A stretch of DNA of 64,000 nucleotides from an uncultured Chloroflexia bacterium (GTDB lineage: Bacteria; Chloroflexota; Dehalococcoidia; GIF9; AB-539-J10). Made by a program: the position numbers and the translations under genes. Shown here piece by piece: positions 32,170 to 64,000 of this stretch (position 1 is the first letter of the stretch; each line of letters begins with the position of its first letter). Below the pieces are notes generated by a model that made no database searches, was not told where the DNA came from, and saw nothing but the letters and a program-made list of their open reading frames with translations. Where the stretch lies: NCBI GenBank assembly GCA_963769975.1, contig CAVYNS010000003.1, forward strand, positions 384,434-448,433, read 5' to 3'.

Positions 32170-32177
32170 GAGCACCG

Positions 32178-32972: not shown

Positions 32973-33161
32973 AACTGCTAGGCTTTTCTAAGTCAAAACC
33001 TTTTTCCTAGGCAAACAGCAAATAGATTTCAAATATTCTGCGGGCTGCAAGTGAATATGGGGCAAGGTCTTGACAAGAACTGATGAGGATTGTAGTATTT
33101 TATCCTAGCCGATTTGTTCGAAAACGACTGACTCAATACGGCAAGCAAAGGTTCAGCAAAT

Positions 33162-33467
33162 TTGGAGGGGCAGATGAAAGCAATAATAACGAGTATTATG
33201 GTAGCCATTGTACTAGCTTCAATCTTTTCCTTGCCGGCTCTAGCCCAAGAAAACAGTACCATCACCATCACTATGACAGGAGCCAATGAAATTTCCATTA
33301 GCCTGGATAAGACACAATGGCCTCTCGGGAACGTGGCTTCAAACACAGAATATGAGACAAGCCCGCCCATAGAGTGGTGCACACTGACCGTACAGGGCAA
33401 TTGTAATGTAAATACCTTTATTGTAGGGGATGATGCTAAATGGGATTGCGCTCACACAATAACATAG
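33162..33467 (+). CDS. small secreted protein (signal peptide); C-terminus DCAHTIT
   Basis: 101 aa; hydrophobic N-terminus ending ALAQE; its stop codon lies inside repeat copy A. Confidence 0.5.
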   Translation: MEGQMKAIITSIMVAIVLASIFSLPALAQENSTITITMTGANEISISLDKTQWPLGNVASNTEYETSPPIEWCTLTVQGNCNVNTFIVGDDAKWDCAHTIT

Positions 33468-33512
33468 AAATGCTACCATTCAGGGTGTGTGTTTGAGGTG
33501 ACAAGACAGGCG
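33444..33512. repeat. mosaic intergenic repeat family, copy A
   Basis: acaataacatagaa ... ttcagggtgtgtgtttgaggtgacaagacagg; shared with 35521-35660, 36378-36515 and 56585-56760. Confidence 0.6.
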
Positions 33513-33550
33513 GTTGTGCAATTTCACACTTCGCTATGCTATGGCTCTGG

Positions 33551-34972
33551 TTAAACAGTGACCTTTATCAGCCAGACATCATAGTCCCCGTACGAAGATG
33601 TGGAACCGGCAATGATGTATCCTCCATCTGAGGTTTGCTGGACTGAGTAGCCATAGTCGTCACCTGAACCGCCAAAGGTCTTGTTCCACGCCAAATTTCC
33701 TGAAGAATCGGCCTTTATCAGCCAGACATCCCCACCGCTATACCAGGACAACGCCGTGTAACCGGCAATGATGTAGCCTCCGTCCGAGGTTTGCTGGACT
33801 GAGTGGCCATAGTCACAAGATGAACCGCCAAAGGTCTGGTTCCACGCCAAATTTCCTGAAGAATCGGTCTTTATCAGCCAGACATCACTACAGCCAGCCC
33901 CGTAGGAATATGTGTTAGCGATAATGATGTATCCTCCGTCCGAGGTCTGCTGCACGGAGTCGCCTTCGTCATCCAGGGAACCGCCAAAGGTCTTGTTCCA
34001 CGTTTCATTTCCTGCAGAATCTGTCTTTATCAGCCAGACATCACGACTGCCAGCCCCGTAGGAATCTGTGCAACCGGCAATGATGTATCCTGCATCCGAG
34101 GTTTGCTGAACCGAGTACCCCTCGTCATAACCTGAACCGCCAAAGGTCTTGTTCCACGCCAGATTTCCTGAAGAATCCGTCTTCATCAGCCAGACGTCCC
34201 TATCGCCAGCCCCGTAGTATTGTGTGGAACCGGCAATGATGTATCCTCCATCCGAGGTTTGCTGAACTGAGTACCCCTCGTCATAACCTGAAGCGCCAAA
34301 GGTCTTGTTCCACGCCAGATTTCCTGAAGAATCCGTCTTCATCAGCCAGACATCTAAAACGCCACCCTCGTATGAATATGTGTAACCGATAATGATGTAT
34401 CCTCCGTCCGAGGTTTGCTGGACCGAGTAGCCATAGTCATAATCTGAACCGCCAAAGGTCTTGTTCCACGCCAAATTTCCTGAAGAATCTGTCTTTATCA
34501 GCCAGACATCAACATTGCCAGCGCCGTAGGAATCCGTGTAACCGGCGATGATGTATCCTCCGTCCGAGGTTTGCTGGACTGAGTAGCCCCGGTCAGTACC
34601 TGAACCGCCAAAGGTCTTGCTCCATGCTACTTCAGGATTATAATAGGTAGTAGCCCTGAAATTAGCGGCGATGTTCTTATCCGAGTCCATGGTAATGGCA
34701 ATACTGGATGTGTTGCCCGACGCACTACCAGTCCAGTGGTCAAAAGTATAACCACTAGCAGGGCTGGCTGTTAGTGTCACCTGTGCACCAGATTCATATT
34801 GGCCACCTGAAGGGGAGACCGAGCCTGCTCCTATGGGGTCAACGACTGTGGTAAGCTTGTAAGTCTCGGCAGAAGCTGGTCCCTCCCATGGTTTGAAAAC
34901 AAATAAGACTATCGCTACGATAATAGCTATGGTGCAACCTACGATGATTCCTGCCAGCTTTTTCTTACTCAT
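33551..34972 (-). CDS. membrane-anchored protein with an InlB-B-repeat-like domain and ~8 beta-propeller (SBBP-like) repeats
   Basis: 473 aa; N-terminal TM helix, [12 protein letters not shown] Ig-like segment, then ~48-aa tandem units ([28 protein letters not shown]). Confidence 0.7.
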
Positions 34973-35058
34973 TCAATTCTCCCCTATTAGCATTATCAAG
35001 CAGAACTAGGATGTCTGGTCTAAGCAATGTCAATCCTCTCCAAATCCACTTAGCTTAT

Positions 35059-35427
35059 CTAGACATCGGCTGACCGCTCAAACTTACAATCTATGTAACC
35101 GTTAGGCTTGAAAACAACTTTAATGCAATTATATGTTTTCTGGCCGTAACTGCCTTTTTTTAAAGAGAATTGGTAGGCAGTATCTAGATTATCCAAAGCT
35201 ATATGAAACAACCATTCTACGATTGCTTTTTCGCCCCAACCTTTGCCCTTCCTTTCATCCCAGTAATCCTTTATTGTCTTCTGGTCTTCCGGGTTGAAAT
35301 AGTGTCGCTCTTTGCGATGGCTAACTCCCGTGTTCTTAGCATACTTGTCAATCCAGTCGTGCAGTTCACCGAATGCAAAACCAGTTCTCTTTTTACTAAT
35401 AGCACAGTGCTTCTTCACGTCAGGCAT
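35059..35427 (-). CDS. hypothetical protein (122 aa)
   Basis: ORF only. Confidence 0.4.
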   Translation of the reverse strand: MPDVKKHCAISKKRTGFAFGELHDWIDKYAKNTGVSHRKERHYFNPEDQKTIKDYWDERKGKGWGEKAIVEWLFHIALDNLDTAYQFSLKKGSYGQKTYNCIKVVFKPNGYIDCKFERSADV

Positions 35428-35520
35428 AGTATTCCCCCTTTTTATACATCATATGAGAATCAAGAATAACAGTCAATACGCCTGAAGGATGCACTGAGAT
35501 TGAGTTTGAGGATAGCTTGA

Positions 35521-35660
35521 GGGATTGTGGGGACACAATAACATAGAACTTTTGCCGTTCAGCGTGCGCGCTTAATGTCGCATAATCACAATACATCACT
35601 CCCAGTTCGTGTAATGAAATAACAAAACAGGCAATTGTTACCCGAACTGCACGAAATATC
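35521..35660. repeat. mosaic intergenic repeat family, copy B (includes a degenerate gene 3' end ...DCGDTIT*)
   Basis: gattgtggggacacaataacatagaacttttgccgttcag ... aataacaaaacaggcaattgttacccgaactg. Confidence 0.6.
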
Positions 35661-35777
35661 CTTTTGTTACATCAGAGGTAACAACTCAAGCTTCTCTTGT
35701 CATAGCTGCACATTATCGACTAATGTTCAATCTTGTTGCAGTCATGAGGCGGCAAAATTGACTTAGTCCATTGAGTG

Positions 35778-36125
35778 TTACTTGCCGATCGGAGATGGTG
35801 CCAACAAACCAGCTAACGCACCTACAGCCGCTGATCCAAGCGCCACGAGTATGTCTGGGGCAGTCTTACCACCTGACACCAGAATAATGCCACCCACAGC
35901 AGCCATCCATGCGAGCGCACCAAGTGCGCCGACGATCATCCGGTATATCCACTTGTCACTATAATATGCTGGTGGCGGCGTCTCTTTTTTGGCCTTGTCG
36001 GCCACCTTTTGCAGTTCTCGGAGGGCTTGGGTGGGATCGGAAGTGCTTATTATGTCTCGCCATGTCTGGGGGTGTTCTTTTAAAATGCTTAACACTTTAT
36101 CGGCAGACCGTTCCTTCTCTTGCAT
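35778..36125 (-). CDS. small membrane protein (2 TM helices)
   Basis: 115 aa; Gly/Ala-rich hydrophobic C-terminal half. Confidence 0.5.
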   Translation of the reverse strand: MQEKERSADKVLSILKEHPQTWRDIISTSDPTQALRELQKVADKAKKETPPPAYYSDKWIYRMIVGALGALAWMAAVGGIILVSGGKTAPDILVALGSAAVGALAGLLAPSPIGK

Positions 36126-36377
36126 TTCTACCTCCTTATTCCAATGTTCGCAGCAAAATAATCCTAGGAACTCAAGTGTTGCTAAACAAGGTAAGTCTCT
36201 ATACGAAAATTAGCCGAATCTGTAAATTCGTAACACATACATTTGACTACGCACTTTGACATTAGTCTCTAAGGGCTACTTCTTATTTAAAATATTCTTA
36301 TAGAAATTACTATACAACTATTTAAGAGAAATTGTCAATAGTTTGTTCGTGGTTTCCAAAACATACTATGGAGTTAA

Positions 36378-36515
36378 GGAGTCACAAAACGCTGCTTTGT
36401 GCAGTGCGCCACAATCGGGATTGTGGGGACACAATAGCATAGAATTTTTGCCGTTCAGGGTGTGTGTTTGAGGTAACAAAACAGACTATTGTTGCCCGAG
36501 TTGAACAATACGTCA
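36378..36515. repeat. mosaic intergenic repeat family, copy C (with a 24-codon ORF ending ...DCGDTIA*)
   Basis: gtcacaaaacgctgctttgtgcag ... gattgtggggacacaatagcatagaatttttgccgttcagggtgtgtgtttgaggtaacaaaacagactattgttgcccgagttg. Confidence 0.6.
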
Positions 36516-36616
36516 GATTGTGTCATCCATGTACGAATCTGTTATGGTTCTATCATAGCTCGGAAGTGACGGGGAGTAGGTTGGATAATCTCTTTTGGAC
36601 GATGTCTGGTAATCAC

Positions 36617-37222
36617 TTACTCGGGCTCAGCAAACTGTTTAGCCGCATTATCCACAATGAGTTGTAAACTTTTCAGGTACTTATCGAACAGGTCGATTGC
36701 TGGCTCTTTGTCCCATGGCTCATCAACGAAATACATATGGTCAATAGTCGCAACTGTTGTAGATTCTCGCTTACGTTTTTTCCGGCGGAGCCGTCTCCTT
36801 ATCGTTCCAATTCGTTGTTTAAAGTATGCCAAAAAATCTTGACGTAAGTAACGTAGCTTACTTCTCCAAGAGCCTCGAATTACAGTAGCAGTCGCTGTAA
36901 CATGAACGCCTATAGATACGTGTGCTTTCATGGTGACGACCTTTCGCACAGAAATACTTTTTTCCTTTAAAACGAAGTTCCTTTGATTTAGGAAGAATTG
37001 TGCTAGTGGGTCTGCTCCTAGTGCGCTCTGTTGGCTCTCATACCATTCTTTGAAGCCGGGAGTGTTATTATATTGCTTTTGTAGCAGAAAGGTAACGCTT
37101 CTTGCCCATACAATAGCCGTTTCAAAAAAGTGGCTGAACTGGATTCGGTCTTGCATTTCAACTGCAACCGCTTTGTCGTAAAAGAAACGGACTTTGTTAA
37201 GACACTTCTGACCTTCAATCAT
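36617..37222 (-). CDS. hypothetical protein (201 aa, Arg/Lys-rich segment)
   Basis: ORF only. Confidence 0.4.
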   Translation of the reverse strand: MIEGQKCLNKVRFFYDKAVAVEMQDRIQFSHFFETAIVWARSVTFLLQKQYNNTPGFKEWYESQQSALGADPLAQFFLNQRNFVLKEKSISVRKVVTMKAHVSIGVHVTATATVIRGSWRSKLRYLRQDFLAYFKQRIGTIRRRLRRKKRKRESTTVATIDHMYFVDEPWDKEPAIDLFDKYLKSLQLIVDNAAKQFAEPE

Positions 37223-37436
37223 TTTTATGTGCCTACACTATGGATATAGACAATCACCGATATTCCTCATTTTAACAGGAATGTTAATCTAAAGATTCCG
37301 AGTGCAAATGGGCGCCAAAGATGTAATAAGAAACCACATAGTCAGGTCACATTTCATCTTTTTGTTACTTGACAATTCTGACGAAGGTGTGATTATGCGC
37401 TATGCTAATCATAATTCGTTCGGACTTTGGAGTGAG

Positions 37437-37841
37437 CTATTTAGAATCTGCCTCAGATATAGTGACCTCTCTGCAAGGAGACCAATTAGAGGAAACGCCG
37501 CTACCAGTACTCACCACCCTTGCTCTGATACAGTAGAGGCCGGAGATATGCCAGGTATGGGATGCGGTTATAGAAGATCCTGAGTCTACCAAGTCACTCT
37601 CGCTATGATTACCGTCTCCCCAGTCAACATAATACTGAACACTAAAGCCCAGGCTAGAACTTGCTCCCCCAATTGTGTACGTCAGGGTTTGTCCTACATA
37701 TCCAGTAGAAGGGCCACTGGGTATATTCGGCGGAATGAGCCACTCAACGTCAGGGTAAAGACGGGGGTGAAACACAACTATGGTGGCTGCTGCACAGGCA
37801 AGTAGAGCCAAGATTAAGACCAGCTTCCACCTAGTTTTCAT
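37437..37841 (-). CDS. small secreted protein (signal peptide)
   Basis: 134 aa; N-terminus MKTRWKLVLILALLACAAAT. Confidence 0.5.
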   Translation of the reverse strand: MKTRWKLVLILALLACAAATIVVFHPRLYPDVEWLIPPNIPSGPSTGYVGQTLTYTIGGASSSLGFSVQYYVDWGDGNHSESDLVDSGSSITASHTWHISGLYCIRARVVSTGSGVSSNWSPCREVTISEADSK

Positions 37842-38180
37842 CCTTGTTCCTCATGTACCACTCATCCTCGAAAGTCTAGTGCCCATACCATCTGCATAAC
37901 AACGTTATGTTGAAGATATTTCTATCAAACAACTTGCCTGTTTCGAAGATCAAGTGTAGCAGAAAGACATGCCTCTTGAGAATATTGTCAAAGGCAATCT
38001 TTGGCACCATTCCCAATATGCAGAAGGATGTAATCGGCTCCCGTGCTCGCCCAATAGTAACAATATAGCGGATTGTGTAGTTTTCCAGGCGCTTTTAAGC
38101 GCTAAGAGCACCTTTCCTAGCCTTCCTAGTCATGGATAGCAGAGTTAACAATAAGATGTCTTGTGTAGCCAGCCGGTGTC

Positions 38181-38552
38181 CTACGCCTGAAGCTCATTCA
38201 TAACATCTTCAAGAAGTCTTCGAAACCAAACTTTCTGTCTTGCAGTTTGCACGAGGAGTCTTTTCCATACATCGACAGGTTCTGTAATTGTTGTTTGACT
38301 GCCCCAATTTAATGTATCCTTCGGTTTCCGATAGTACCCGATTCTAATCCAAAGTGGTTTCAGTTCACCTTGAAATTCAATGAGGTCCACAACATCCCAA
38401 TATGGAACACCCTTGGTTCTAGGATTGCTAATGATGACAGCTCTGTCTTTTAATATCCCTCTCTTATTCCCTTCGCCTCCCGGAAACTTAAATGAGACTG
38501 GTTTACCCATTTTTTGTTTGATTTTGTCAATTATTTTACGATCATGTGCCAT
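38181..38552 (-). CDS. hypothetical protein (123 aa)
   Basis: ORF only. Confidence 0.4.
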   Translation of the reverse strand: MAHDRKIIDKIKQKMGKPVSFKFPGGEGNKRGILKDRAVIISNPRTKGVPYWDVVDLIEFQGELKPLWIRIGYYRKPKDTLNWGSQTTITEPVDVWKRLLVQTARQKVWFRRLLEDVMNELQA

Positions 38553-38625
38553 GTAATTTCCCTTTCATAAACTTTTTTGCCGAACTCCACCTGAGACAAT
38601 GCTAAGGTCGGTCTAAATAAGTCAA

Positions 38626-39072
38626 TCAGTCTTTCAAAAGTGTTTTAAAAGCTTGAATATCAAAGGGATCGCTTTCAGCTTGGGATTTCCACTGCTGCAT
38701 CAAGCTCTTCCAGGCAGATGTTTCCTGAAGTTCTTTGAATAGTTTCACAGGGAGATGCCCTTTGAGGTCGTTGAGGTCATAACAAACAAGTTGATAACCG
38801 TAGGACTCGTCGTTCGGGGAAATGTGATCAATAGCAGCGTATAGTGGATGGCACCCCGCCTCATTGATATTTGGATTTCCATACTTCTTCTCGAAGAGCA
38901 TTGACGCATTGGAAAGGGAACATCGCCCTTTCTGCCTGATTATTAGCTCTCTAAGCTGAGAAGGACTTAACTTTTTCTTATTCTTAGTCCATGCAATTTG
39001 GGCTTTAGTTAAATAATAATCATCTTCCATGCTGGCTGTGTCCCATAACTCGTTAAAATTCCTGTCTGACAT
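38626..39072 (-). CDS. hypothetical protein, possible HNH-like nuclease fold
   Basis: 148 aa; Cys/His spacing (GRCSLSN ... GCHPLYAAIDH) loosely resembles an HNH motif. Confidence 0.35.
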   Translation of the reverse strand: MSDRNFNELWDTASMEDDYYLTKAQIAWTKNKKKLSPSQLRELIIRQKGRCSLSNASMLFEKKYGNPNINEAGCHPLYAAIDHISPNDESYGYQLVCYDLNDLKGHLPVKLFKELQETSAWKSLMQQWKSQAESDPFDIQAFKTLLKD

Positions 39073-39349
39073 ATCCTAACCCTGCTCTCCATGATAGTCA
39101 ATCTCCTCAGGTAACCAGCCCTTCTTCCAAGAATTCCAGCCCGGTCGGTTCCTGCTCCAACGCTCACTGCTGCACATAACTGACAAATGTGCAATCTCGC
39201 GCCTGCTCGATAAAAATACATAAGGCAAAATTTCAAGAACTAGCTATTATGTCGGTAATCCCAGGGGGATAGGTGTCAAAATTAACGATGAAAAAACCTC
39301 ACATTTCGGGGAGACATCTGTGCTGGGCAGATAGGCTAAAAGTGTTATA

Positions 39350-40249
39350 ATGGCAAGTAGCAACAGACTCAAGTGTTTAGTTACGAGCGACGAGGTAGCC
39401 TATATGAGCATATCGTCCAAATCATCATTAGAACTGGACGCAGCGAAGAGTCTCATGTGGTGGATAACACATGAGACTCTTGTTCCAATTGACAAGCCAG
39501 ATTGCAGCCAACCATCGAGGCCGGGAGGGAACCCTGATTTTATCTTCCAGGACTCGAGAAAGCGTAAGTATGTATTGGAAGTGACTCGGCTGCTAACTTC
39601 AAAGTTACGCAACCTCGAAAATACGGTAGCTGCCCAAGTTTGTGCTCCAGTAGAGTACCAAATTCCTGGTACCTACGGGTTGCATATCCACTTGACCGAT
39701 CCTCTTGGGCGGGGCAAGATCGCCCCCGAGGTTTTGAAGCAAACAGCGGAGGAAATATCTAGAATATTAAAAGATGGCACTTTGCAGGATACTCAACAAT
39801 TGAGCGCAGGGTTTATCCTTTGGAAGGCAAGGAGCGAAGGCAGTAAGCTAGTACCTTGGATTACCTCGCCGGAACTACCATTTGACCTAACTGATGCCCA
39901 TCCCATCGCCAAGGAACTGCGAAGTGTATTTGAGAAATTGATAGAGGAAGGTGATTTGAAGTTTCGAGGCTATGACCCGTACAGGCTCCTGCTTATTAAC
40001 ACTTCACAATCAGGATTGGACTTAAAATTCCATGCCGGAAGATTCAAGGATGGCAAAGGTATCTTGCTCACCTGGATGGATACTTTATGCCAGCGGATCC
40101 TCAACATCGATGCCATCTTCTTAGAACCCGGTATCAATGTCCGGTCAGCAGGAGGCAAAGTAATGGCAGGGCATAAATACGTTGAGAGCAAGTCTGGTCA
40201 CTACCTTGAGCTCTGGCATCGTAGTAGCGTTCCACCGCTTCTTATCTAG
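39350..40249 (+). CDS. hypothetical protein (299 aa)
   Basis: ORF only. Confidence 0.45.
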   Translation: MASSNRLKCLVTSDEVAYMSISSKSSLELDAAKSLMWWITHETLVPIDKPDCSQPSRPGGNPDFIFQDSRKRKYVLEVTRLLTSKLRNLENTVAAQVCAPVEYQIPGTYGLHIHLTDPLGRGKIAPEVLKQTAEEISRILKDGTLQDTQQLSAGFILWKARSEGSKLVPWITSPELPFDLTDAHPIAKELRSVFEKLIEEGDLKFRGYDPYRLLLINTSQSGLDLKFHAGRFKDGKGILLTWMDTLCQRILNIDAIFLEPGINVRSAGGKVMAGHKYVESKSGHYLELWHRSSVPPLLI

Positions 40250-40497
40250 CTGAATACTTTGGGACATCTAACAAATACTCATTATGTTGCCTTAACCCTT
40301 GCGGGGTATTGAACGAAATAGCGTTTTGTGACTGCTTAACCCTATGGCATCTTCTAAGCAAGGGTAGCAATAGCCCTGTGTTGTCAAAAATTCCTGCCAA
40401 GAGGGGAAAGCACGTGCTTTCCGAAAGCTGCTCCAGAGAAGCATGCTTTTTAGCTTAATGAAGCGCTTAAAAAGCAGCTGCTAATTTTATATTAGAT

Positions 40498-40875
40498 GAG
40501 CAGCTCGGGGTGAGCAGCTCGAAAGCAGCTTTTTTGAAGCCCTGATTACGAAGGGTCTCTTGGGGCAACTAGTCAAAACCCAGAAGCAGCTTCTGAATTT
40601 ACGTTTGGCCGAGCAGCTCGGAGCGCTGCTCGGAGCAGCTTTTTTGACCCCCTGATTACGAAGGCGTTATCTTAAGGCAACTAATCAAGGTTCGGAAGCA
40701 GCTCAAGATTTTACGTTGGCCGAGCAGCTCCGAGCAGCTGCTCAAGCAGCTTTTTTGAAGCCCTGATTACGAAGGCGCTATCTTAAGGCAACTAATCAAG
40801 GTCCGGAAGCAGCTCAAGATTTTACGTTGGCCGAGCAGCTCCGAGCAGCTCAAAAGCAGCTTTTTCTTGAGGAGA
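40498..40875. repeat. non-coding tandem repeat, 111-bp unit, ~3.4 copies
   Basis: Units start at 40498, 40611, 40722 and 40833; each contains gagcagctc(g/c)g ... agcagcttttttga(a/c)gccctgattacgaagg ... aaggcaactaatcaagg. Confidence 0.8.
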
Positions 40876-40985
40876 TTCTCGAGATGGGGAAAGTAATTTG
40901 CTTTCCACCGTGCGAAAATCATTTACTATTCGGCGAAAACTGCGCTCCATAGTAAGCATTCCCTAGAGCATCCAAACGTGCTATA

Positions 40986-41516: not shown

Positions 41517-41722
41517 CGCTAGCGCTTGACCCTATATCGGCCCTACCAAAACAACCTCGGTGGAGACGGCTGCTCGGGAGACAGGGGTAAGCCTCGGACT
41601 GTCTTATCGCTAACGCCTTGCCACTTTTGTTGCGTAATGGTGCTTCAATCGGCACGGGAAGGTTAGTATTTCCGCTTTCAACCGTTATTCCTTTACCCTA
41701 GATAATTCAACAAAAGAATCAA

Positions 41723-41947
41723 TCAGGGTGCGCTTTTCCCATTGATTACGTCCCTCAGCTTTAGCCCGTTGGCCTTCAGGACCCCAAAGATATATGCCGG
41801 ACTGCAACCCAGCTCGGTGGCCGCCGCCACCACGTTACGGTGTGCCTTTAACGACTCACAAACGTTTTTGAATGGTATATTAAGCCGTCTGCGTCCTAAA
41901 CCATTCACCGTTACCATTCCCCCGCAGTGCGGACAAGTAACTTTCAC
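41723..41947 (-). CDS. small zinc-ribbon / HTH DNA-binding protein
   Basis: 74 aa; CPHCGG zinc ribbon followed by a helix-turn-helix-like segment. Confidence 0.45.
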   Translation of the reverse strand: MKVTCPHCGGMVTVNGLGRRRLNIPFKNVCESLKAHRNVVAAATELGCSPAYIFGVLKANGLKLRDVINGKSAP

Positions 41948-41974
41948 CCCGCTTTACTCTCCAAATTTTTTCTC

Positions 41975-42155: not shown

Positions 42156-42165
42156 CTATACTTTT

Positions 42166-55789: not shown

Positions 55790-56352
55790 TTGAAGCTCTC
55801 CGAAATAATTTTCCAGGGATCCACATTATCTGCGCCCACCGGAGACGCAAGCATCAGATTCACCTGGAGACCGTTTCGATAAAACTCGTAAAGGAGCACA
55901 TCCATCCTGTACTTCTTTCCAGTGACCTGGTTTGGTGCGCTGTCCTTCTGGTATTTGATAAGTATCGCCGTACCTCCGGGCAAGGTGACCTGCTTGGTTT
56001 CGACAAGCTGGAATGCAGGCTCGGTGCTTGCTAGCTCCGGCACATCGACCGAGTTTGCCCGCTCGACAGTCGGCTCTGGAGCATCAGGAACCCACCTGAT
56101 GGATACTATGTTCAGCTTGTCGGTGAATTCAGTACTTGACTCAGAGGTCGACTGCGCCCATCCCTCCGGTACCTTGACCTCAAAACTCCCGCTGGTCGGC
56201 TTGTACATCACGAAGACCTGGTTGTCTGGAATATCACCAGAAGGATTAACCCCCTCGTTGCTTGCGGATTTTCCGTGTGCTAAAGCCAACAATACCGACC
56301 CGGTTGCTATTAATACTATTAATATCAGATAGACCAACCTTTTTTTCTTCAT
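55780..56352 (-). CDS. secreted/lipoprotein component of the ABC system
   Basis: 190 aa; signal peptide MKKKRLVYLILIVLIATGSVLLALAHG. Confidence 0.5.
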   Translation of the reverse strand: MKKKRLVYLILIVLIATGSVLLALAHGKSASNEGVNPSGDIPDNQVFVMYKPTSGSFEVKVPEGWAQSTSESSTEFTDKLNIVSIRWVPDAPEPTVERANSVDVPELASTEPAFQLVETKQVTLPGGTAILIKYQKDSAPNQVTGKKYRMDVLLYEFYRNGLQVNLMLASPVGADNVDPWKIISESFKWL

Positions 56353-56584: not shown

Positions 56585-56760
56585 ATTTGCCGTTCACTCC
56601 CGGTTCATGTTGCTGTGTTTACATGGTCACAATAACACTCAGTTTTTGTCTTCAGGGTGTGTGTCTGACTACGCTGTTAATACCTTTTGTTGCTTTGTGG
56701 TTACAGGTATCAAGTCAAAGCAAGAAGTCACAAAACGCTAAAAAGTGCAATCAGATATAA
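56585..56760. repeat. mosaic intergenic repeat family, copy D (rearranged)
   Basis: tttgccgttcac ... ggtcacaataacactcagtttttgtcttcagggtgtgtgtctgac ... gtcacaaaacgctaaaaagtgcaatc. Confidence 0.55.
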
Positions 56761-56910: not shown

Positions 56911-57980
56911 GTGAGAATTCTCGATCAGGAGGGAAATACCGTGACGGATAGGAAAACAGACAACTTAGAGGATACACTTAGAATGGTACAGGAGGTCTTG
57001 ACAGCTAACAGAAAAGACCTCCGCTCACTGCTCTACAAAGACATTATCCTGAATTCGCTGAAGTGCAAACGAGATGAGCTTGATATTCTTGATCTCAAGG
57101 TCATCAATCGGGCAGTGGCCGAGTTCCGACATGCCGCGTGTGTCTTCAAACCGTACAGGATGGTTCGTAAAGTGTCCATGTTTGGTTCCGCTCGAGTAAC
57201 CAGGCACAGCCCCGACTATGAGCTAGCGCGCAGACTCGGCCGTTTGCTAGTTGAAAAAGGGTTCATGGTAATCACTGGAGCTGCAGAAGGTATCATGAGG
57301 GCGGAATTGAAGGTGCCGGCGCTGAAAACAGTTTTGGAGCTAACATCCTGCTCCCAATTGAAAGGGGGCCTACCAGTATAATTCGAGATGATCCAAAGGT
57401 GGTTCGGTTTAAATATTTTTTCACGCGCAAAATATTCTTTGTAATGGAAGCTGATGCTATTGCGCTATTCCCTGGGGGCTTTGGCACGCATGATGAAGGA
57501 TTTGAAGTGTTAACGTTGCTACAGACAGGTAAAGCACCGCCAATGCCTGTAGTGCTTATGGAATTGCCAGGGGAACAGTACTGGGAAACTTGGGATCAAT
57601 TTATAAGGCAGCAGTTGCTAACCCGGCGCTTTATCTCCCCGGAGGACCTTTCCCTTTACAAGATCATCCATTCTCCCGAGGAGGCGGTAGAATGGATTAG
57701 GTCATACTACGCAACCTACCATTCAACACGCCAAGTACGAGACCAGCTTGTCATCAGGCTAGAGAAAGAGCTTCTGGGCAGTCATATTAGGAAACTAAAC
57801 GAGTCTTTTCAGGACCTCGTTGAGTCTGGGGAAATTGCCAAAACACCCGCTCTAAAAGAGGAAGAAGACGAACCGAACCTCTCATTAAAACCCAGAATTG
57901 CTTTTGCGTACAACAAAAAAAGTGCTGGGCGCCTTAATCAGATGATATTAATGATAAACCAACTGGGCCAAACAATTTGA
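56911..57980 (+). pseudogene. LOG-family (TIGR00730-type) Rossmann nucleotide-binding protein, split by a 1-nt frameshift
   Basis: ORF1 (56911-57381) carries FGSARV ... VITGAAEGIM. The other frame, open from 57255 (track ORF 57399-57980), continues GGIEGAGAENSFGANILLP ... ADAIALFPGGFGT. The frames switch near 57295-57300. Confidence 0.6.
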
Positions 57981-58002
57981 GTGTTTGTGCAATCAGCAAC
58001 AA

Positions 58003-60210
58003 TCATTTGCTGTTCGAATTGTTTTCCCCTTCACTGAAAAACATACTCATGAAAGGTTCCCGACTAGATGTGTCGCGCGCTAGACCTACCCAGGATAAAA
58101 TACCTGCTTCATCCATTTTATGCACACAGTATTCTGGCAAGAACATCATGCGCTCAAGATTTGGTTTTTGTGTGCCATCTCCACAGAAATAGGTGAACCC
58201 CCATTGATTAGATGTGTCGATTATCGTGAAGTCTTTGAGCGCTCCGCCGCTATCTTTGGATCGACGCAAGGTGGACACAATACTTTCCTCGATGGCCTTT
58301 CGAAACGGATAACTAATGTCAAGTAGAGAGCAGCAAACATCAGTGTAACCCGGATTGTGAATCCGCTCCAAAGCCAGCAAGATGCTTTTCAGATGTCTCG
58401 GTATGAACTGACCCGGTCTTGGGACTCTTAACCTCAATCCTCTCTTATAATAGAAATATTGATCAAAATCGCTGGTTGCGTTAACAATATGAATCTTTTC
58501 TATGGGATCGGTGACCTTGGGCATCGGGATTTCCAGATTTAAGATAAAGTAGCACCCAAAATAGTCAAGTTCGTCAGATGCGTATACCTTCTCCGATACA
58601 CTCATCCTCTTTTTGAAGTAATGCACAAATTGAGAAGGAAAATCGATAAAATCTGAGATCAAACTCAAACTTCCTATGTAAATAGGCCAAGGATATTCAT
58701 CTGCTGAGAACAGTCCCAGAGATTTTAACTTTCTTGGATCTGCTGCCAGCACGTCAAATGAATCAAAGGTTACACTTATGAGAAAATAATTCTTGATGGA
58801 CCTCTTATCTATCGTAATTGTCGAACCGTCAGACAAAGTAAATTCTGCTTGGTCACTCATTTTTATATAGTCCTTGGCGCGTCTTGCCTGTCTAAAGGTC
58901 CTTTCGATAGATTGCTGAATATCATGTACTATAGGCTCTTTCACGCCTTTTTTTGATGCCTGGGTTACTGGGTGGGTTGCACATTCTATCAGGAACAGAT
59001 TGTTGTCATGTTGAACCAGAACGTCTAACTCGACTCTGATCCTTCTGCTATTTTCTATCACATTGTATTTAAGTCTATTGTAGGCAGCAGCTGTTGGGAA
59101 AATCTTCTTGAAAAGCCTCAATGATTCCTGTTCTAAGTAGCGTGACCTAAGACGGTTATATTTTTCTCGATACAATGAATCTCCCATCAACTCCTTGTCC
59201 AGGGAATAAAATAGACAGCGGGCCAAATAGGCTGAGGAATGGAAGAGATATGCCTGATCAAGTTTGACTACAGGGGTGTCCTGAAGAGGGTTGTCATCTA
59301 ACGGACTGGTGAACTTACCATCAACCTGTCCCGGTTCAATGGAAACCCATTTTAGAAAAGAAACCAAAGAATCTTGATCGTTAGAATTAACATTTTGAAG
59401 TAGTTCCTGTTCGGAAATGAAAAACAAACCTCTAGCCAGTTCTGGGAGTGTATTCAGAACATGCCCTGCTTCAACAGATTGCTTCTGGCTGCGTTTCTTT
59501 TTATAAATACCTATAGGCCAGGCGGTCGCATTAACTTCTGTTGAGGCCAGTTCTGTAAAAACCGTAATCAGTCTTTCTTTTTCCTTCTCGAATCTATTAA
59601 TTTTGAGGCGAGAAATCGTCTTTACAAAGGCAATCGCTTGAGCTATATTAAATCCAAACTTCTGTTCAAGGTACCGTGCCTGTGAATCAAATAGCTGTTG
59701 TGCCATCTCAAGAAAGTACGTGTCATAAGTTTCACCTCTGACGAGCATATAGTTCAGACGTGCATTTGTTAAGATATTCCACTTATCCTCGTCTGCATGC
59801 TCTGAGCTGTAGAATTGTGCTGCGCAGTATTCATTGCACAACCAAAATATTTTCTCGGAGAGGTCACGAATTGCGGTAGCGTCTTTGATGCTGGGATACT
59901 GCAGATTCCGAACATTATTTTTCAGTGCCAAAGCTGTAATGTATTCTATGAATGCCGGAGAATTTGGGTCTACGTACCCCCTCCGTACTTGTGCAGAACG
60001 TGCCATGTTTAATACTACTATTAGGGGCAATAAGGTTGACTTATCAAATCTGGCAATAGCGGACTCCAGTTGCGACGCTTCTGATTTGATTTGGTCATGT
60101 AGCTTAGCGGCATCTGGCAGTTCAAGCTCATCAACCCGCTTCTTATCCTTTGAACTCTTACCACCTAGCCACACTAGCTGGATACGTTCATTGAGATTTC
60201 GTCTTTTCAA
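58003..60210 (-). CDS. hypothetical protein, 735 aa, second gene of the TIR operon
   Basis: Long ORF 83 nt downstream of the TIR gene on the same strand; no P-loop and no recognisable catalytic motif. Confidence 0.55.
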   Translation of the reverse strand: MKRRNLNERIQLVWLGGKSSKDKKRVDELELPDAAKLHDQIKSEASQLESAIARFDKSTLLPLIVVLNMARSAQVRRGYVDPNSPAFIEYITALALKNNVRNLQYPSIKDATAIRDLSEKIFWLCNEYCAAQFYSSEHADEDKWNILTNARLNYMLVRGETYDTYFLEMAQQLFDSQARYLEQKFGFNIAQAIAFVKTISRLKINRFEKEKERLITVFTELASTEVNATAWPIGIYKKKRSQKQSVEAGHVLNTLPELARGLFFISEQELLQNVNSNDQDSLVSFLKWVSIEPGQVDGKFTSPLDDNPLQDTPVVKLDQAYLFHSSAYLARCLFYSLDKELMGDSLYREKYNRLRSRYLEQESLRLFKKIFPTAAAYNRLKYNVIENSRRIRVELDVLVQHDNNLFLIECATHPVTQASKKGVKEPIVHDIQQSIERTFRQARRAKDYIKMSDQAEFTLSDGSTITIDKRSIKNYFLISVTFDSFDVLAADPRKLKSLGLFSADEYPWPIYIGSLSLISDFIDFPSQFVHYFKKRMSVSEKVYASDELDYFGCYFILNLEIPMPKVTDPIEKIHIVNATSDFDQYFYYKRGLRLRVPRPGQFIPRHLKSILLALERIHNPGYTDVCCSLLDISYPFRKAIEESIVSTLRRSKDSGGALKDFTIIDTSNQWGFTYFCGDGTQKPNLERMMFLPEYCVHKMDEAGILSWVGLARDTSSREPFMSMFFSEGENNSNSK

Positions 60211-60292
60211 TTACGCGAACTCACAGAATGGGTTTTTCCTTAATCCTTCCCGCGCAGGACAGCGTGCATTCACATTCATTTGAGAGAATGCT

Positions 60293-61324
60293 TCACCTAG
60301 CCTCAATGGCTGGGAGCAAATCCTCTAGACCTCGTTGGTAGTTTGTCCTGAAATCTGCGTACCGCTTATCCGCAATGAGAGGTGGAATGTCACAATCAGC
60401 AATCAGAACTGGCAGGACTACTACATTCCTTGTTTGTAGTTCACGCATTAAGCCAGCACTCAGCTCTTTCTCAACCCAAGACGATTTTACTGAATTAGGC
60501 GATAGAATGAGTATGAGGTAGTCGTTCCTATTAATACTTTCGTTGATCTTCTTCGCAATAGAGTCGCCAACCTTTATTTCCCAACGATCCCACCATACTT
60601 GCTTCCCTGAGTTATTCAGGTCGTTCACGAGGCGTTCTACAAACTCAGCATCCTTACTTGAATAGCTGATGAAAGCGCTGGGTATTGTCTTGTCCTTTTT
60701 TAACACTGGCTTACGATTCTTCCTATAGGCAGACAGTTCCGCTTCTACCACAGGAATGATTTCAGCTGGCATGGTCCAATCTGGGTATTTATTACTGCCG
60801 GTTTTAAAGATCAGTTTTAGAGTGCGGAATCTTGGTAGCAAATAGGATGGGACAAATTCATAACCGAGCGCTGATTCAATGGCATCAAGAAGCTCGAAAT
60901 ATTCACTTCTTCCGCCTTTATCGATAATTCCTCGCAAGACACCGTAGGCTTTGTCTCCCCAGCGACTGAGCGCCTTTTGCACGTTCGCACGTACAGCATC
61001 CCAGGAACTTTCGACCTTCAGTCGACCACTTTCATCGCAAGTGTAATAATTTCCCTGGAATCCACCGAGGTCAAGGCCATACTTTGGCGGTTTCTTCATT
61101 ATGAGTTTGACCAGCGTTTCGTCAGAAATCACTTCTGCAATAGCTAAGGCCGCCTTTAACCTAGAATCATCCCCATATCCAATGTCCCAGTAATTCGCGA
61201 ATTTCTCAAAATAAGGAATACGCAGGATCTTACCTACATTATAGAGGTCCTCCAGCCAATAAAGGCGCATCAATAATAAGGCTCTTTCTTTTGTCCTTGC
61301 ATCCGTCAGTTCGTTAGATGGCAT
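60293..61324 (-). CDS. TIR-domain protein (unknown ~200-aa N-terminal domain + C-terminal TIR)
   Basis: 343 aa; the C-terminus FISYSSKDAEFVERLVNDL ... WWDRWEIKVGDSI ... ILSPNSVKSSWVEKEL matches TIR core motifs, including the catalytic-region Glu. Confidence 0.75.
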   Translation of the reverse strand: MPSNELTDARTKERALLLMRLYWLEDLYNVGKILRIPYFEKFANYWDIGYGDDSRLKAALAIAEVISDETLVKLIMKKPPKYGLDLGGFQGNYYTCDESGRLKVESSWDAVRANVQKALSRWGDKAYGVLRGIIDKGGRSEYFELLDAIESALGYEFVPSYLLPRFRTLKLIFKTGSNKYPDWTMPAEIIPVVEAELSAYRKNRKPVLKKDKTIPSAFISYSSKDAEFVERLVNDLNNSGKQVWWDRWEIKVGDSIAKKINESINRNDYLILILSPNSVKSSWVEKELSAGLMRELQTRNVVVLPVLIADCDIPPLIADKRYADFRTNYQRGLEDLLPAIEAR

Positions 61325-61628
61325 GTTTTAGCCTCGCGTTCTCGTGAGAGTTATGACCCAGATTCCTATTTTACCATTTTTAACATGTGTACCAAACGGT
61401 TCATGATCCTAGCTGTAAAACCTTGCTTATCTCTACGCATGGTATGCCAAGGCTTAACAATTGTCAGTATTGTTTAATGCAAAGAACACCGGTCTTCGGA
61501 GACTGAGACTAGGGTGGCGTTTTCATCGTGCCGAAATGAGACCCGACGGCCCGACACCACGAGGGGTTACACCTGACTACAACTGCCAACACTCGCGATA
61601 AGCGAGTAGTTAAGCGTTAAAATCCGAG

Positions 61629-61653
61629 AGGGGAAGCGTCAAGCCTCCCCTCA
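61629..61653 (-). terminator. putative rho-independent terminator after the hsdM-S gene
   Basis: Minus-strand hairpin GAGGGGAGGCTTGACGCTTCCCCTC followed by tcGGATTTT. Confidence 0.35.
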
Positions 61654-61680
61654 GCGGCTCTTTATTCCCTTGGTAAGGAA

Positions 61681-63660
61681 TCACGACGGCAGAAAGTCAG
61701 AGATAGTAACGCGCCTCTTTGAAGTTTTCATCAGCCCTTCTGTTTCACGTATTATCCGCTCTGCCAACTTAATAACTTCTTCATCCGACGAGGAATCTCG
61801 AAGCAATGTTGCTGCGTCAATCATTGCAGCTGCTTTGGTGGCGATTAGATGAGACTCAATTGCCTCATCTTGAAGGTCAGGCTTTGGGACGGGAATTATT
61901 ACACCACCGAGTTGACCGCTGCTCATTGTTACGTTAGTAGCTCCACACATCAGTGGGACCAAAAGTTCGTCGCACATGGCACTCAACAAAATGTGCAAAT
62001 ATCGCGGCCGGATAATGTCTTCATCTTTGACGAATAGTGCACACATAGTACTCGCCAAGGCAAATTTTCCCTCCTGAAAGTGGATCCGTTTGATATCCGC
62101 TTTGCCATGTCCCGCCGACGAGACTAATGGAATGCAGATCGCACTGCCTTCGAAGTCCCAGTGGTCGGCCGTTTTTCGCTCATCTGCTGGGACTACCAAG
62201 ACGAAGTCGCCTGGCGGAGTCGCCATATTGGGAGATAGCCCATCACGGATATCACACAGATCACCAAGGCGCATCAACGGGATATCCTTGCGATGTATGA
62301 CTCGGTTGGGGAGATCATGCCATCGGCCCAGAAGATGAGCCTTGTCGTTGCCCAGAAGTGTCACTTTAGATATTTCATATGACCTGACGCTAGTGAGAGT
62401 CCGTTTCCAAGCACGCCTCTCACTCACAGCACGCTTAAACGAAAGGATACACTGCTTAGCATCCTCAAGCTGCGATCCTGCTATTGGATCTCGGGTATCG
62501 GATTGAGAAAAGCCATCGTTTTCGATCTCCACGAACAGCACTGAATCGCTCTGGTGTGCGAGACTGCAGTCGATTATCAAGATATGAGTCTTGACACTTG
62601 CGTAAGGTTTAAAAACTCCGTGGGGAAGAGTAACATCGGCGAGCAAGAATCCTTTCTCCAACAAAGTCTTCCGTAATTGAGTGTGACCCGACTGTGCAAC
62701 AAAATGGATCCCTTCGGGTACGATAACCCCTGCCTTGCCTGCCGGAGTAAGGTGCTCGATTATGTAGTCCAGAAACAGAACTTCGCTGCGCCTGGAATGC
62801 ACCGAGAAGCGGTTATGTGGCTTGATGCCCCCTTTCGGTGTCATGAAGGGTGGATTAGCCATGATGACGTCTGCATATTCGTTCCAGCGCTCTTGACTCG
62901 TCAAAGTGTCGTACTCGGCGATGTGTGGGTCGGCGAAGCCGTGCAGGTACATGTTCACAAGCGACAGGCGCACCATGTCAGGCGATATGTCGTAGCCCTT
63001 GAAGTTCTGGGCGAGACGGCCTTTTTCATCCGGCGTCAGGGTGCTATTGCGCTCAGTATCGGTGTTGGCCTTGAGGATATGCTTGTAGGACGAGATGAGG
63101 AACCCGGCGGTACCACAGGCTGGGTCAAGTACAGTCTCGGTCTTTTTAGGGTCGACCACCTCAACTATGAAATCGATGATGTGGCGCGGGGTTCGAAACT
63201 GCCCGGCTTCACCTTGAGAGCCGAGTACGGAGAGCAAATACTCAAAGGCATCGCCAAGCCGTTCGCTGTGGTCGTAAGTGAACTCGTCGATGATCTTGAG
63301 GAAGGCGCGCAGGGTTTCCGGATCGCGGTAGGGCAGATACGCATTCTTGAAGATATCTCGGAAAAGCGGTGGAATACCGGGGTTCTCCGGCATCTTAGCA
63401 ATGGCGTCGGCGTAGAGGTTCAGGGTTTCGTGTCCCCCCAACCCAGAGCGCATTAGCTTGGACCATCCGTACTTGGCGAACTCATTGGCAAAGAACTTGC
63501 GCTTACCACCCATCTCCTCGGATTCGGCGTCCATATCGTCCATGAACTTGAAGATCAACGCGATAGTAATCTGCTCAACCTGACTCTTCGGGTCGGGTAT
63601 TTTGCCCACAAGAATATCTCGGGCGGTATCGATACGGCGTTTAGTCTCGGTGTCTAGCAT
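61681..63660 (-). CDS. hsdM: type I R-M N6-adenine DNA methyltransferase fused to a single specificity (TRD) domain (HsdM-S fusion)
   Basis: 659 aa; motif I VLDPACGTAGFL, motif IV NPPF; the C-terminal ~230 aa resembles an HsdS target-recognition domain. Confidence 0.8.
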   Translation of the reverse strand: MLDTETKRRIDTARDILVGKIPDPKSQVEQITIALIFKFMDDMDAESEEMGGKRKFFANEFAKYGWSKLMRSGLGGHETLNLYADAIAKMPENPGIPPLFRDIFKNAYLPYRDPETLRAFLKIIDEFTYDHSERLGDAFEYLLSVLGSQGEAGQFRTPRHIIDFIVEVVDPKKTETVLDPACGTAGFLISSYKHILKANTDTERNSTLTPDEKGRLAQNFKGYDISPDMVRLSLVNMYLHGFADPHIAEYDTLTSQERWNEYADVIMANPPFMTPKGGIKPHNRFSVHSRRSEVLFLDYIIEHLTPAGKAGVIVPEGIHFVAQSGHTQLRKTLLEKGFLLADVTLPHGVFKPYASVKTHILIIDCSLAHQSDSVLFVEIENDGFSQSDTRDPIAGSQLEDAKQCILSFKRAVSERRAWKRTLTSVRSYEISKVTLLGNDKAHLLGRWHDLPNRVIHRKDIPLMRLGDLCDIRDGLSPNMATPPGDFVLVVPADERKTADHWDFEGSAICIPLVSSAGHGKADIKRIHFQEGKFALASTMCALFVKDEDIIRPRYLHILLSAMCDELLVPLMCGATNVTMSSGQLGGVIIPVPKPDLQDEAIESHLIATKAAAMIDAATLLRDSSSDEEVIKLAERIIRETEGLMKTSKRRVTISDFLPS

Positions 63661-63666
63661 GAGATC

Positions 63667-64000
63667 TCCTTAGGCGGCGAACTGATCCACAGGAACATAG
63701 TCCTTGACATATTCAGGAACCAGCGTACGGTACTTCTCCGGAACGGCACGGAAGTCGCGTGTGGAGAACATGGCATTGGTGGCCAGATCGGTGAAATTAC
63801 GGCTCTCTATAATGTGACGTACCTGATCGCTGGTGATGTAGGCTTTGAAGTAGGTCTTGATAGCTGGGATAGCCTCGACCATCTCCGGTTTGGTATCGGC
63901 GATGAATTTGACGAACTCTTCTTCGAGCAGTTCATCTTTGGACTTGAAGCGTGGGATGAAACCGAAGATCTTTTCGAGCATTTCACGCAGTGTTAGGCGG
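63667..64000 (-). CDS. hsdR: C-terminal end of an upstream gene, probably the type I restriction R subunit (HsdR); truncated by the window edge
   Basis: The reading frame is open to the window boundary; it ends 7 nt before the hsdM start; the tail sequence is compatible with an HsdR C-terminal domain. Confidence 0.4.

Follow-up and report, generated by a model that had tools for sequence, protein, structure and literature searches.

Immunity genes reportedly cluster in variable regions of microbial genomes, a concept attributed to Makarova, Wolf, Snir, and Koonin in 2011 and called the defense island. In Dehalococcoides, high-plasticity regions and genomic islands targeted to ssrA have been described (PMC2764846), and in Vibrio, Vibrio cholerae repeat (VCR) sites and single genes alternate in sedentary chromosomal integron arrays (PMC4889954). 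Here we describe a 64,000-nt window (positions 384,434 to 448,433 of contig CAVYNS010000003.1, assembly GCA_963769975.1) from an uncultured bacterium of the Dehalococcoidia (Chloroflexota), in which a probable accessory island begins at nt 33,443 and is marked by copies of a ~70-nt repeat.

We consider it probable, at roughly 0.8, that nt 33,443 to at least 64,000 constitutes a horizontally assembled accessory island, the right end of which lies beyond the window. The island is a mosaic of modules and not a single element.

33.4–40.4 kb, module (i): co-oriented cassettes of one to a few genes, with full repeat copies between them
40.4–45.5 kb, module (ii): a 111-nt tandem repeat, then DUF3854/DUF3987 primase/helicase genes, with no integrase
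45.6–51.6 kb, module (iii): an Mrr-nuclease/nSTAND1 NTPase, DUF45, an endonuclease/exonuclease/phosphatase (EEP) nuclease, and HEPN
51.8–56.4 kb, module (iv): a high-GC MacB-type exporter
56.9–58.0 kb, module (v): a LOG pseudogene
58.0 to at least 64.0 kb, module (vi): an Upx-like nuclease-fold protein, a TIR protein, and hsdR-hsdM/S

Such an island would have grown by successive recombination at the repeat, either site-specific or homologous, and would also have captured at least one integrative replicon that has since decayed.

As in defense islands, a segment that related species lack brings together genes for restriction-modification (R-M), STAND NTPase, TIR, HEPN, and nuclease proteins with mobile-element genes, and unannotated neighbors have nuclease folds and recur in other such clusters. 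The clustering of defense families was found at the domain or component level, and the variability pertains to ~1–10 kb of downstream DNA in relatives. The locus is unlike defense islands in that about one-third of its 29 genes are of defense type and in that an ABC exporter lies mid-region. Its left 7 kb is better described as a repeat-delimited array of cassettes for secreted and unknown proteins than as a defense locus; the term defense fits, roughly, ~45.6–51.6 kb and 58–64 kb, plus a nuclease-fold cassette at 39.4 kb. An initial annotation of the window had called the part beyond ~33 kb a defense-island-like accessory region, in agreement with its lack of synteny, foreign composition, mobile-element genes, and defense-type cluster.

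The locus also resembles the islands of Dehalococcoides (PMC2764846), a member of the same class: genomes are streamlined, variable genes lie at few sites, accretion at one anchor is in tandem, and direct repeats lie between units. It differs in that a protein-coding gene (c0) takes the place of the tmRNA gene as anchor, the repeat does not duplicate the target gene's end, there is no serine recombinase, and the units are single genes of ~1.4 kb and not islands of multiple kb.

Synteny ends within a truncated gene

Species-representative genomes were scanned with the last activase of the window's 2-hydroxyacyl-CoA-dehydratase-like operon (32178–32972). The scan yielded 78 loci with up to 96% amino acid (aa) identity, nearly all in metagenome-assembled genomes (MAGs) of uncultured Dehalococcoidia/Chloroflexota, and the comparison reached ~1–10 kb downstream of this one anchor gene, depending on the contig. 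The genes at 20817–32972 and the first 90 codons of the gene at 33162–33467 form a collinear core (75–97% aa identity by tblastn) in at least 10 related Dehalococcoidia MAG species, including L007, L008, L011, L015, L023, and L064 (L numbers designate the loci and contigs compared). Homology to all collinear relatives stops at nt 33,443–33,444. None of the window genes from 33551 to 63981 occurs in the downstream DNA of any relative, with the exception of L001 and L002, which are the same population from other samples and are 99.8–100% identical to the window.

33162–33467, plus strand: truncated gene c0, codons 1–90 of a 187-aa secreted protein that is whole in relatives

Past nt 33443, c0 continues for eight foreign codons to a stop. 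In relatives, c0 is followed by c1 (a 184-aa anchored protein), an extracytoplasmic function (ECF) sigma factor, and a subtilisin, beyond which lie large, variable PKD/VWA surface proteins. The closest relative (L003, 96%) has c0, c1, and c2 intact; c1–c3 are absent from the whole window. At the junction the window reads ...GATGATGCTAAATGGG followed by ATTGCGCTCACACAAT, as compared with ...AAATGGG followed by TTAGCGATCC in relatives, and the breakpoint inside c0 is the sharp edge of the first repeat copy. The island occupies the place of the c0, c1, ECF sigma factor, and subtilisin block of relatives. The switch in gene content that the initial annotation had placed beyond ~33 kb is real, can be placed to the nucleotide, and is accompanied by a shift in tetranucleotide usage. 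Within the downstream DNA compared, the region is clearly neither syntenic nor conserved in relatives.

Tetranucleotide usage correlates with that of the syntenic core at 0.81–0.87 in an independent 1–8 kb stretch and at 0.31–0.72 in every 4-kb window between 32 and 64 kb, with the minimum over the ABC exporter. The GC content of the island modules ranges from 0.436 to 0.555; that of the whole window is ~47%. No tRNA or tmRNA genes occur in the window, and Rfam returned nothing at gathering thresholds over its whole length.

Independent contigs match the window at 99.8–100% identity over 28,822–42,237 (L001), 30,836–33,693 (L002), 41,332–44,995 (L220), 42,239–50,706 (L217), 42,239–49,325 (L219), and 57,055 to 64,000 and beyond (L081, L082, and L204). 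The left junction is real, since contigs from other samples cross it. It is hardly credible that the join at ~33.4 kb is a chimera of unrelated contigs created at a repeat during assembly or binning: the junction does lie at a multi-copy repeat at which many related contigs end (L004 and L014), but the assemblies of two other samples cross it at 99.8–100% (L001 and L002), and L187, L129, and L191 carry the same junction between truncated c0 (c0') and the repeat.

A ~70-nt repeat lies at the cassette junctions

The repeat was recognized as a family of 76 nt at 33442, 35521, and 36417, with related motifs at 40.3, 48.4, and 56.7 kb.

33440–33517, minus strand: repeat copy 1 (nhmmer E 1e-17), sharp edge ..CAATCCC
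35521–35700, minus strand: repeat copy 2 (E 1.5e-21), with extra TTGTTAC-N7-GTAACAA modules
36340–36530, minus strand: repeat copy 3 (E 2.4e-19), then module B (AGCGTTTTGTGACT)
40281–40355, plus strand: inverted repeat fragment, module B (motif match)
48438–48496, minus strand: repeat remnant, 5' module only (motif match)
56625–56740, minus strand: degenerate repeat copy and module B (E 0.06)

In total, the window has three full copies, one degenerate core copy, and two partial remnants, all beyond 33.4 kb and none in the first 33 kb. The relatives' loci, which span 0.996 Mb, have one profile-detected copy (in L004). On the minus strand of the window the consensus is tga.c.tgc.acaTtAaACACgCACgCTGAACGGcAaaAgTTCTATGTTATTGTGTcccCaCAATCCC, and conservation drops sharply after CAATCCC, so that the sharp end reads ...ACACGCACGCTGAACGGCAAAAGTTCTATGTTATTGTGTCCCCACAATCCC. 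Module B (AGTCACAAAACGCT) is found at 36380–36393, 40320–40333 (minus strand), and 56726–56739, and also in L088. The repeat appears to be composite, because module B lies past the sharp edge in some copies yet stands alone in the window, once inverted.

An exact 21-mer of the repeat had no match in metagenome contigs. A pattern with 26 specified bases matched more than 120 of the metagenome contigs listed, many of them from sediment, and matched no viral contig. Arrays, upstream genes, and recombinases were surveyed in 120 metagenome loci among the matches listed, in which a profile detected 170 copies. Adjacent pairs of copies are co-oriented in 50 of 50 cases, with a median spacing of 1,442 nt. 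A same-strand open reading frame (ORF) ends within 400 nt upstream of 48 of 70 copies, as compared with 31 of 70 on the other strand (p = 0.006). Grouping of the 102 genes upstream of the repeat gave 61 clusters; the largest (30 genes) encodes secreted RCC1, LRR, and InlB-B-repeat proteins; others include hydrolases, radical SAM enzymes, and dehydrogenases.

Breaks in homology coincide with the repeat. Ten pairwise megablast alignments in seven independent sets end no more than 12 nt from the sharp edge, seven of them within 2 nt. The arrangement A-repeat-B in L183 corresponds to A-repeat-X-repeat-Y-repeat-B in L085, which amounts to insertion or deletion in units of gene plus repeat. The c0'-repeat junction is common to the window, L129, L187, and L191, and these diverge inside the repeat or at its far edge, with different cassettes behind it. 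The same junction is followed by the contig end in L004, and in L177 c0 is cut at the same point and a repeat copy lies ~175 nt further on. The edge is suggested to be a true element terminus by the microhomology with the otherwise repeat-free c0, which is limited to TGGG, and by the strict orientation of 50 to 0.

An array at this anchor is seen most clearly in L191, which aligns to 29380–33494. It has the same activase operon and truncated c0, followed by at least five co-oriented copies over ~8.5 kb with different genes between them.

Genes of the island also recur elsewhere as discrete units: those for the DUF45, 281-aa, and Upx-like proteins are found in other contigs at 80–97% nt identity. 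The DUF45 unit (48,471–49,364) is 97% identical at the nt level in L158 and L179, with the match starting at 48471–48472, inside the repeat remnant; in L179 the DUF45 gene is directly beside a full repeat copy, whereas the window keeps the remnant only. For the 281-aa cassette, similarity to L151 likewise stops at a repeat remnant (40289). Such remnants border modules (ii), (iii)/(iv), and (v).

These observations bear on whether the region could instead be a vertically inherited, fast-evolving surface-protein locus, with merely incidental defense domains and a repeat that is no more than a conserved terminator or 3' untranslated region of a paralogous family. Relatives are variable too a few kb downstream, where large PKD/VWA surface proteins differ between species; secreted RCC1, LRR, and InlB-B-repeat genes are the commonest upstream of the repeat; and the repeat has no consensus RNA or single-stranded DNA (ssDNA) structure beyond a 6-bp hairpin. 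We nonetheless find such a locus improbable, given the shift in composition, the truncation of c0 and loss of c1–c3, the 61 unrelated gene clusters upstream of the repeat, the co-orientation of 50 to 0, and the homology breakpoints exactly at the repeat edge. In addition, R-M, STAND, TIR, and replication genes are not surface-protein genes.

Like the integron arrays of Vibrio (PMC4889954), the repeat arrays have co-oriented sites about one gene apart, gain and loss in units of gene plus site, and a fixed chromosomal platform with cassettes that vary by lineage. These likenesses, together with the occurrence of integrons in Chloroflexi (PMC4889954), would favor a classical integron cassette array (a cluster of attC sites lacking integrases, CALIN) with the repeat as attC. 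The repeat, however, is conserved in sequence yet unfolded (ssDNA z-scores of -1.07 to +0.71 for seven copies; alifold -2 kcal/mol), with only the 6-bp hairpin conserved, and inspection revealed no complementary R''/R' boxes (RYYYAAC/GTTRRRY) at its ends. The anchor is flanked by a conserved dehydratase/activase operon and no tyrosine recombinase, and none is recurrent in the 120 loci. In the array stretches covered, which stop short of the distal ends, neither IntI nor attI was found, and the orientation of genes relative to the repeat is biased and not fixed. A classical integron array is accordingly very improbable. The reading of the repeat as a structured RNA or attC was rejected on these alifold and near-zero z-score values, and Rfam returned nothing at E≤1 over 33.3–36.7 kb. 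A literature search found no paper linking Dehalococcoidia with integrons or attC.

Repetitive extragenic palindromic (REP) elements, bacterial interspersed mosaic elements (BIME), and repeats like miniature inverted-repeat transposable elements (MITE) are short, conserved extragenic elements that occur in many copies per lineage, have a small terminal hairpin, and often lie at gene 3' ends. The repeat has each of these properties. REP/BIME-type and MITE-like elements are not known to form strictly co-oriented arrays, nor do they usually mark the exact points at which homology breaks. Also unlike REP/BIME, the repeat has no associated RAYT or IS200-type transposase among 632 ORFs in the loci listed.

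It is possible, although we propose it only tentatively, that the ~70-nt repeat serves as recombination site for a hitherto undescribed cassette system in sediment Dehalococcoidia, analogous to integrons and lacking attC folding and IntI. Such a system would build co-oriented arrays at fixed chromosomal anchors, here the truncated c0 beside the dehydratase/activase operon. The cargo of the system, exchanged between genomes gene by gene, would include genes for surface proteins, enzymes, and defense nucleases (DUF45, 281-aa PD-(D/E)xK, and Upx-like). The repeat is apparently undescribed, and the repeat system may be new.

Cassette stretch and replication module

Proteins of the island were annotated with the Pfam, PADLOC, PHROGs, and NCBIfam libraries. 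The left part of the island has the following features.

33551–34972, minus strand: secreted InlB B-repeat protein, in which a 156-nt (52-aa) unit recurs in frame ~6.7 times; cassette nearest the anchor
35059–35427, minus strand: 122-aa protein
35778–36125, minus strand: 115-aa protein, judged from its sequence a likely membrane protein (hydrophobic C-terminus)
36617–37222, minus strand: 201-aa protein
37437–37841, minus strand: 134-aa secreted protein with a weak PKD match
38181–39072, minus strand: two small ORFs of 123 aa (38181–38552) and 148 aa (38626–39072)
40512–40865: 111-nt tandem repeat, 3.2 copies
40986–41516, plus strand: bifunctional-nuclease (BFN) domain protein (Pfam)
41723–44369, minus strand: mobile-element replication module of three genes
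44598–45320: 68-aa AbrB/MazE-like protein (minus strand) and 147-aa unknown protein (plus strand, 44877–45320)

The InlB B-repeat protein has a 63% homolog in L090. The ORFs at 35059–35427, 35778–36125, 38181–38552, 38626–39072, 41723–41947, and 44877–45320 had no significant match in the four libraries, with sub-threshold matches only at 35778–36125 and 38626–39072. A precomputed annotation assigns the 201-aa protein to PF26900 (Phage_lambda_Ea47); a fresh Pfam scan returned nothing significant. An HNH-like C..C/DH/N..C motif can be discerned by eye at 38626–39072, without confirmation by a hidden Markov model.

The 111-nt tandem repeat is rich in GAGCAGCTC palindromes and lies just upstream of the BFN and primase/helicase genes. 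Its copies may be iterons, which would make it a candidate replication origin of the neighboring module. The latter consists of a 74-aa CxxC-motif protein (41723–41947), a DUF3987 helicase/primase-associated protein (42166–43416; PHROG DNA primase match, 6e-27), and a DUF3854 protein (43404–44369). The repeat families and mobile-element replication genes noted in the initial annotation are both confirmed.

Just downstream of the DUF3987 gene, a 10–11 nt tandem repeat (CACTGACACTT, five copies) occupies 42009–42065, in the intergenic region or in an ORF at 41954–42169. At 42,237–42,239, 24 codons before the end of the DUF3987 gene, three contigs of two independent assemblies (ERZ27250423 and ERZ935967) break; a third assembly bridges the position. 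The break at 42238 may be a population-level structural variant or an element end.

An alternative is that the whole region is one large integrated mobile element (an integrative and conjugative element, integrative plasmid, prophage, or satellite) that was inserted once into c0 with all its cargo. The target gene is indeed cut at a sharp junction, the DUF3854/DUF3987 module lies beside iteron-like 111-nt repeats, and two assemblies break at 42,238, as expected of the end of an element with multiple contexts. We nevertheless regard a single insertion as unlikely. Pfam and PHROGs identified no integrase, excisionase, conjugation, or virion genes; viral contigs scanned with the DUF3987 protein gave no relative, and the repeat pattern matched no viral contig; and the junction has no att-like direct repeat. 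The GC content differs between modules (0.436 to 0.555), island genes are found singly in other contexts, and L129, L187, and L191 carry the same c0'-repeat junction with different cargo.

A prophage in particular was rejected: PHROGs matched only the primase/helicase protein, with which no relative was found in viral contigs.

Defense-type genes and exporter

45594–48317, plus strand: 907-aa protein with an Mrr-type PD-(D/E)xK nuclease, an nSTAND1 NTPase, and a C-terminal region of ~400 aa
48568–49329, plus strand: YgjP-like/DUF45 metallopeptidase (1e-59)
49432–50517, minus strand: EEP protein (Pfam)
50637–51569, minus strand: 310-aa protein with an N-terminal HEPN match (32 bits, cut-off 22)
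51777–56352, minus strand: MacB/FtsX-type ABC exporter operon (190-aa secreted protein, two ABC ATPases, and 897-aa double-FtsX permease)
56911–57980, plus strand: frameshifted LOG/SLOG-family gene, with ORFs of 156 aa (56911–57381) and 193 aa (57399–57980)
60293–61324, minus strand: 343-aa protein with an unrecognized N-terminal domain and a C-terminal TIR_2 domain
61681–63660, minus strand: type I R-M HsdM with one S-like target-recognition domain fused C-terminally
63670–64000, minus strand: 3' end of hsdR, the type I restriction subunit C-terminus; the gene continues beyond the window

Avs/AVAST proteins are antiviral STAND NTPases. The 907-aa protein likewise has an N-terminal Mrr-type nuclease effector (Mrr_cat, residues 43–108), a STAND NTPase (nSTAND1/AAA_16, residues 247–488), and a long C-terminal region of ~400 residues. 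It differs from Avs proteins, of which Avs2 is an example (PMC13601566), in that no PADLOC Avs model matches at E≤0.01, no PDB sequence matches, the NTPase is Pfam nSTAND1, and the C-terminal region has no recognizable domain. NTP-dependent oligomerization of the STAND protein would release its Mrr nuclease.

The initial annotation had joined the next two genes as a DUF45/EEP pair. The two are not a conserved pair in the contigs compared, in that the 97% nt similarity in L158 and L179 stops short of the EEP gene. Makarova et al. in 2011 reportedly linked DUF45 proteins with type I R-M; a literature search found no paper placing COG1451 with defense islands.

The ABC exporter proposed earlier is supported by domains, with the FtsX/MacB permease and two ABC ATPases spanning 51777–55789. 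Its GC content is 0.555, and its composition is the most atypical of the window (r 0.31). The LOG gene is split by a frameshift in a sequence that the contigs of four other samples cover at 99.9–100%, and an identical downstream product of 193 residues has been called in two other assemblies. It is the one verified case of the two frameshifted genes that had been noted; the other damaged gene found (33162–33467) is a truncation.

The best PADLOC match of the TIR protein is PDC-S66 (4e-22), a candidate class. The protein also resembles Thoeris ThsB, with matches to ThsB-type models (1e-12 to 1e-5) and to Pfam ThsB_TIR (5e-6), and an SSWVEKEL glutamate motif is present. Unlike in Thoeris, neither TIR neighbor matches ThsA. 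A Thoeris system composed of the TIR gene and the nearby SLOG/LOG gene was rejected, as the latter is a pseudogene without a ThsA match. The TIR protein may act by NAD+ cleavage or by signaling.

Type I R-M appears to be the sole recognizable named system, as judged at the component level. HsdM matches N6_Mtase (1e-47) and PADLOC MTase_I (1e-90, residues 2–421), and scores 51 bits against NCBIfam hsdM, the cut-off of which is 243. The fused S-like domain matches Methylase_S (E 0.004, residues 463–597) and is single; no separate hsdS gene occurs in the window. The last 110 codons of HsdR are in the window, or 195 with L081 (L081:2-589), and the motor and nuclease domains are located outside. 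Homologs of this C-terminus number 1,155, and the best 120 of these are 74–85% identical, many being named 'type I restriction enzyme R subunit'. The system would act by methylation and restriction, and the defense-type genes of the island as a whole would act independently of one another.

Some of the best 120 HsdR homologs are attributed to Bacteroidetes and Neomarinimicrobiota, which suggests that this type I R-M family has been exchanged across phyla.

Two candidate nuclease families

58003–60210, minus strand: 735-aa protein without a Pfam domain; the closest solved fold is that of Upx
39350–40249, plus strand: 299-aa ORF with a restriction-endonuclease-like fold, of a family of ~281 aa with 46 proteins

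Upx is a single-protein antiphage nuclease with dual PD-(D/E)XK domains (PMC13099982) and has been studied for terminase sensing (PMC13601566). The 735-aa protein is similar to Upx in overall fold, is shorter (735 as compared with 1,212 aa), and has no profile or PDB sequence match that would relate the two at the sequence level. One PD-(D/E)xK-like strand motif is found at residues 380–420, with invariant D396, D402, E409, and H413; no canonical ExK lysine can be made out in the sequence, which has IECATH there, and no second PD-(D/E)XK core was identified.

The 13 members of the 735-aa family are 47–100% identical and lack Pfam domains. Elsewhere the gene is solitary and its contexts vary, three of five being rich in defense genes. 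In L205 it adjoins a type IIG methyltransferase, a 2006-aa STAND protein, Dam, DUF87, and HD proteins, and in L206 a type ISP R-M enzyme, HEPN/NTase, a DEAD helicase, and LexA; in L208 it lies between core genes, and in L209–L211 beside an Mrr protein. A distant (24%) homolog of 736 aa directly follows a repeat in L151. The initial annotation had grouped the 735-aa protein with its TIR neighbor as a TIR operon, a pairing that does not hold up, as none of the five other contexts has an adjacent TIR gene.

The 281-aa family has an invariant PD...E.TR motif, and elsewhere its genes adjoin a type I-C CRISPR-Cas locus or a WYL/helicase-PLD locus. The Upx-like and 281-aa proteins are both predicted to act as nucleases. 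One homolog of the latter (P0176) is a chimeric ORF of 459 aa, in which ~160 residues from the end of the 281-aa family are joined in frame to the C-terminal portion of a large serine recombinase (Recombinase and zinc-ribbon domains). Such a fusion points to insertion of a serine-recombinase element in the 281-aa gene of another genome.

Among the genes that had been listed as possible unknown defense components is that at 39350–40249, one of the two unannotated proteins with nuclease folds and defense-island contexts elsewhere.

Weight of the evidence and implications

Several points weigh against the horizontally assembled island proposed here. No island protein attains its curated NCBIfam cut-off, and no complete PADLOC system can be called, so that the term defense rests on domains and on association with defense genes elsewhere. 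The Mrr-STAND, DUF45, EEP, TIR, and type I R-M loci of the initial annotation are confirmed at the domain level, and the PADLOC check that it had proposed gave matches to components. The fold match between the 735-aa protein and Upx has a TM-score of 0.25, with 12% identity over 261 aligned residues. Island genes might sit elsewhere in relatives' genomes, the comparison being within 10 kb of one anchor gene, and no independent contig covers 50.7–57.1 kb. The bias of the repeat toward gene 3' ends is only moderate (48/70 versus 31/70), and the pattern could be due in part to homologous recombination between 70-nt repeats, combined with duplication of a paralogous surface-protein family whose 3' region is conserved. 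The island was found to lack recombinase, integrase, and transposase genes, and none recurs among the 632 ORFs of at least 100 aa near the repeat, so that any mechanism of cassette gain is conjectural.

As a defense island the locus is ordinary, and it extends such islands to an uncultured, streamlined Dehalococcoidia lineage. More consequential is its mode of assembly, as a lineage-wide repeat supplies both the island border and the internal seams. Should a dedicated recombinase exist, the repeat would represent a second, independent route to bacterial cassette arrays and would help to chart the flexible genes of a group not yet cultured; if none exists, it would still be a useful marker of recombination hot spots in these genomes. 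Two small unannotated families, the 735-aa Upx-like (13 members) and the 281-aa PD-(D/E)xK (46 members), are nominated as candidate defense nucleases.

First half of the window

The genes of the first half encode thiolases, FolC, adenine deaminase, GlyRS, ClpB, two DnaJ proteins, an aminotransferase, and the 2-hydroxyacyl-CoA-dehydratase-like operon with two activases. The characterization of this half as housekeeping holds for the most part, with exceptions at 9905–11776 and 23790–25529.

9905–11776, minus strand: 623-aa AAA_15 ATPase
23790–25529, minus strand: 579-aa TPR protein

The AAA_15 ATPase matches PARIS AriA over the full profile (1e-58) and also matches Old and GajA. A 288-aa ORF without a match lies directly downstream. 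The islet that includes both (8870–11776, minus strand) has a low GC content (0.42) and an atypical composition (r 0.64), and looks like a second small defense locus. The genes that flank the TPR gene are adjacent (~24–60 nt apart) in all relatives examined, and the TPR gene is therefore a lineage-specific insertion in the syntenic core. L101, a metagenome contig of a close relative, matches the window at 92% over 4–5270 (thiolase-FolC genes) and has a repeat copy ~5 kb beyond the point matching coordinate 4, which suggests that the window may be flanked on its left by another repeat-marked variable site.

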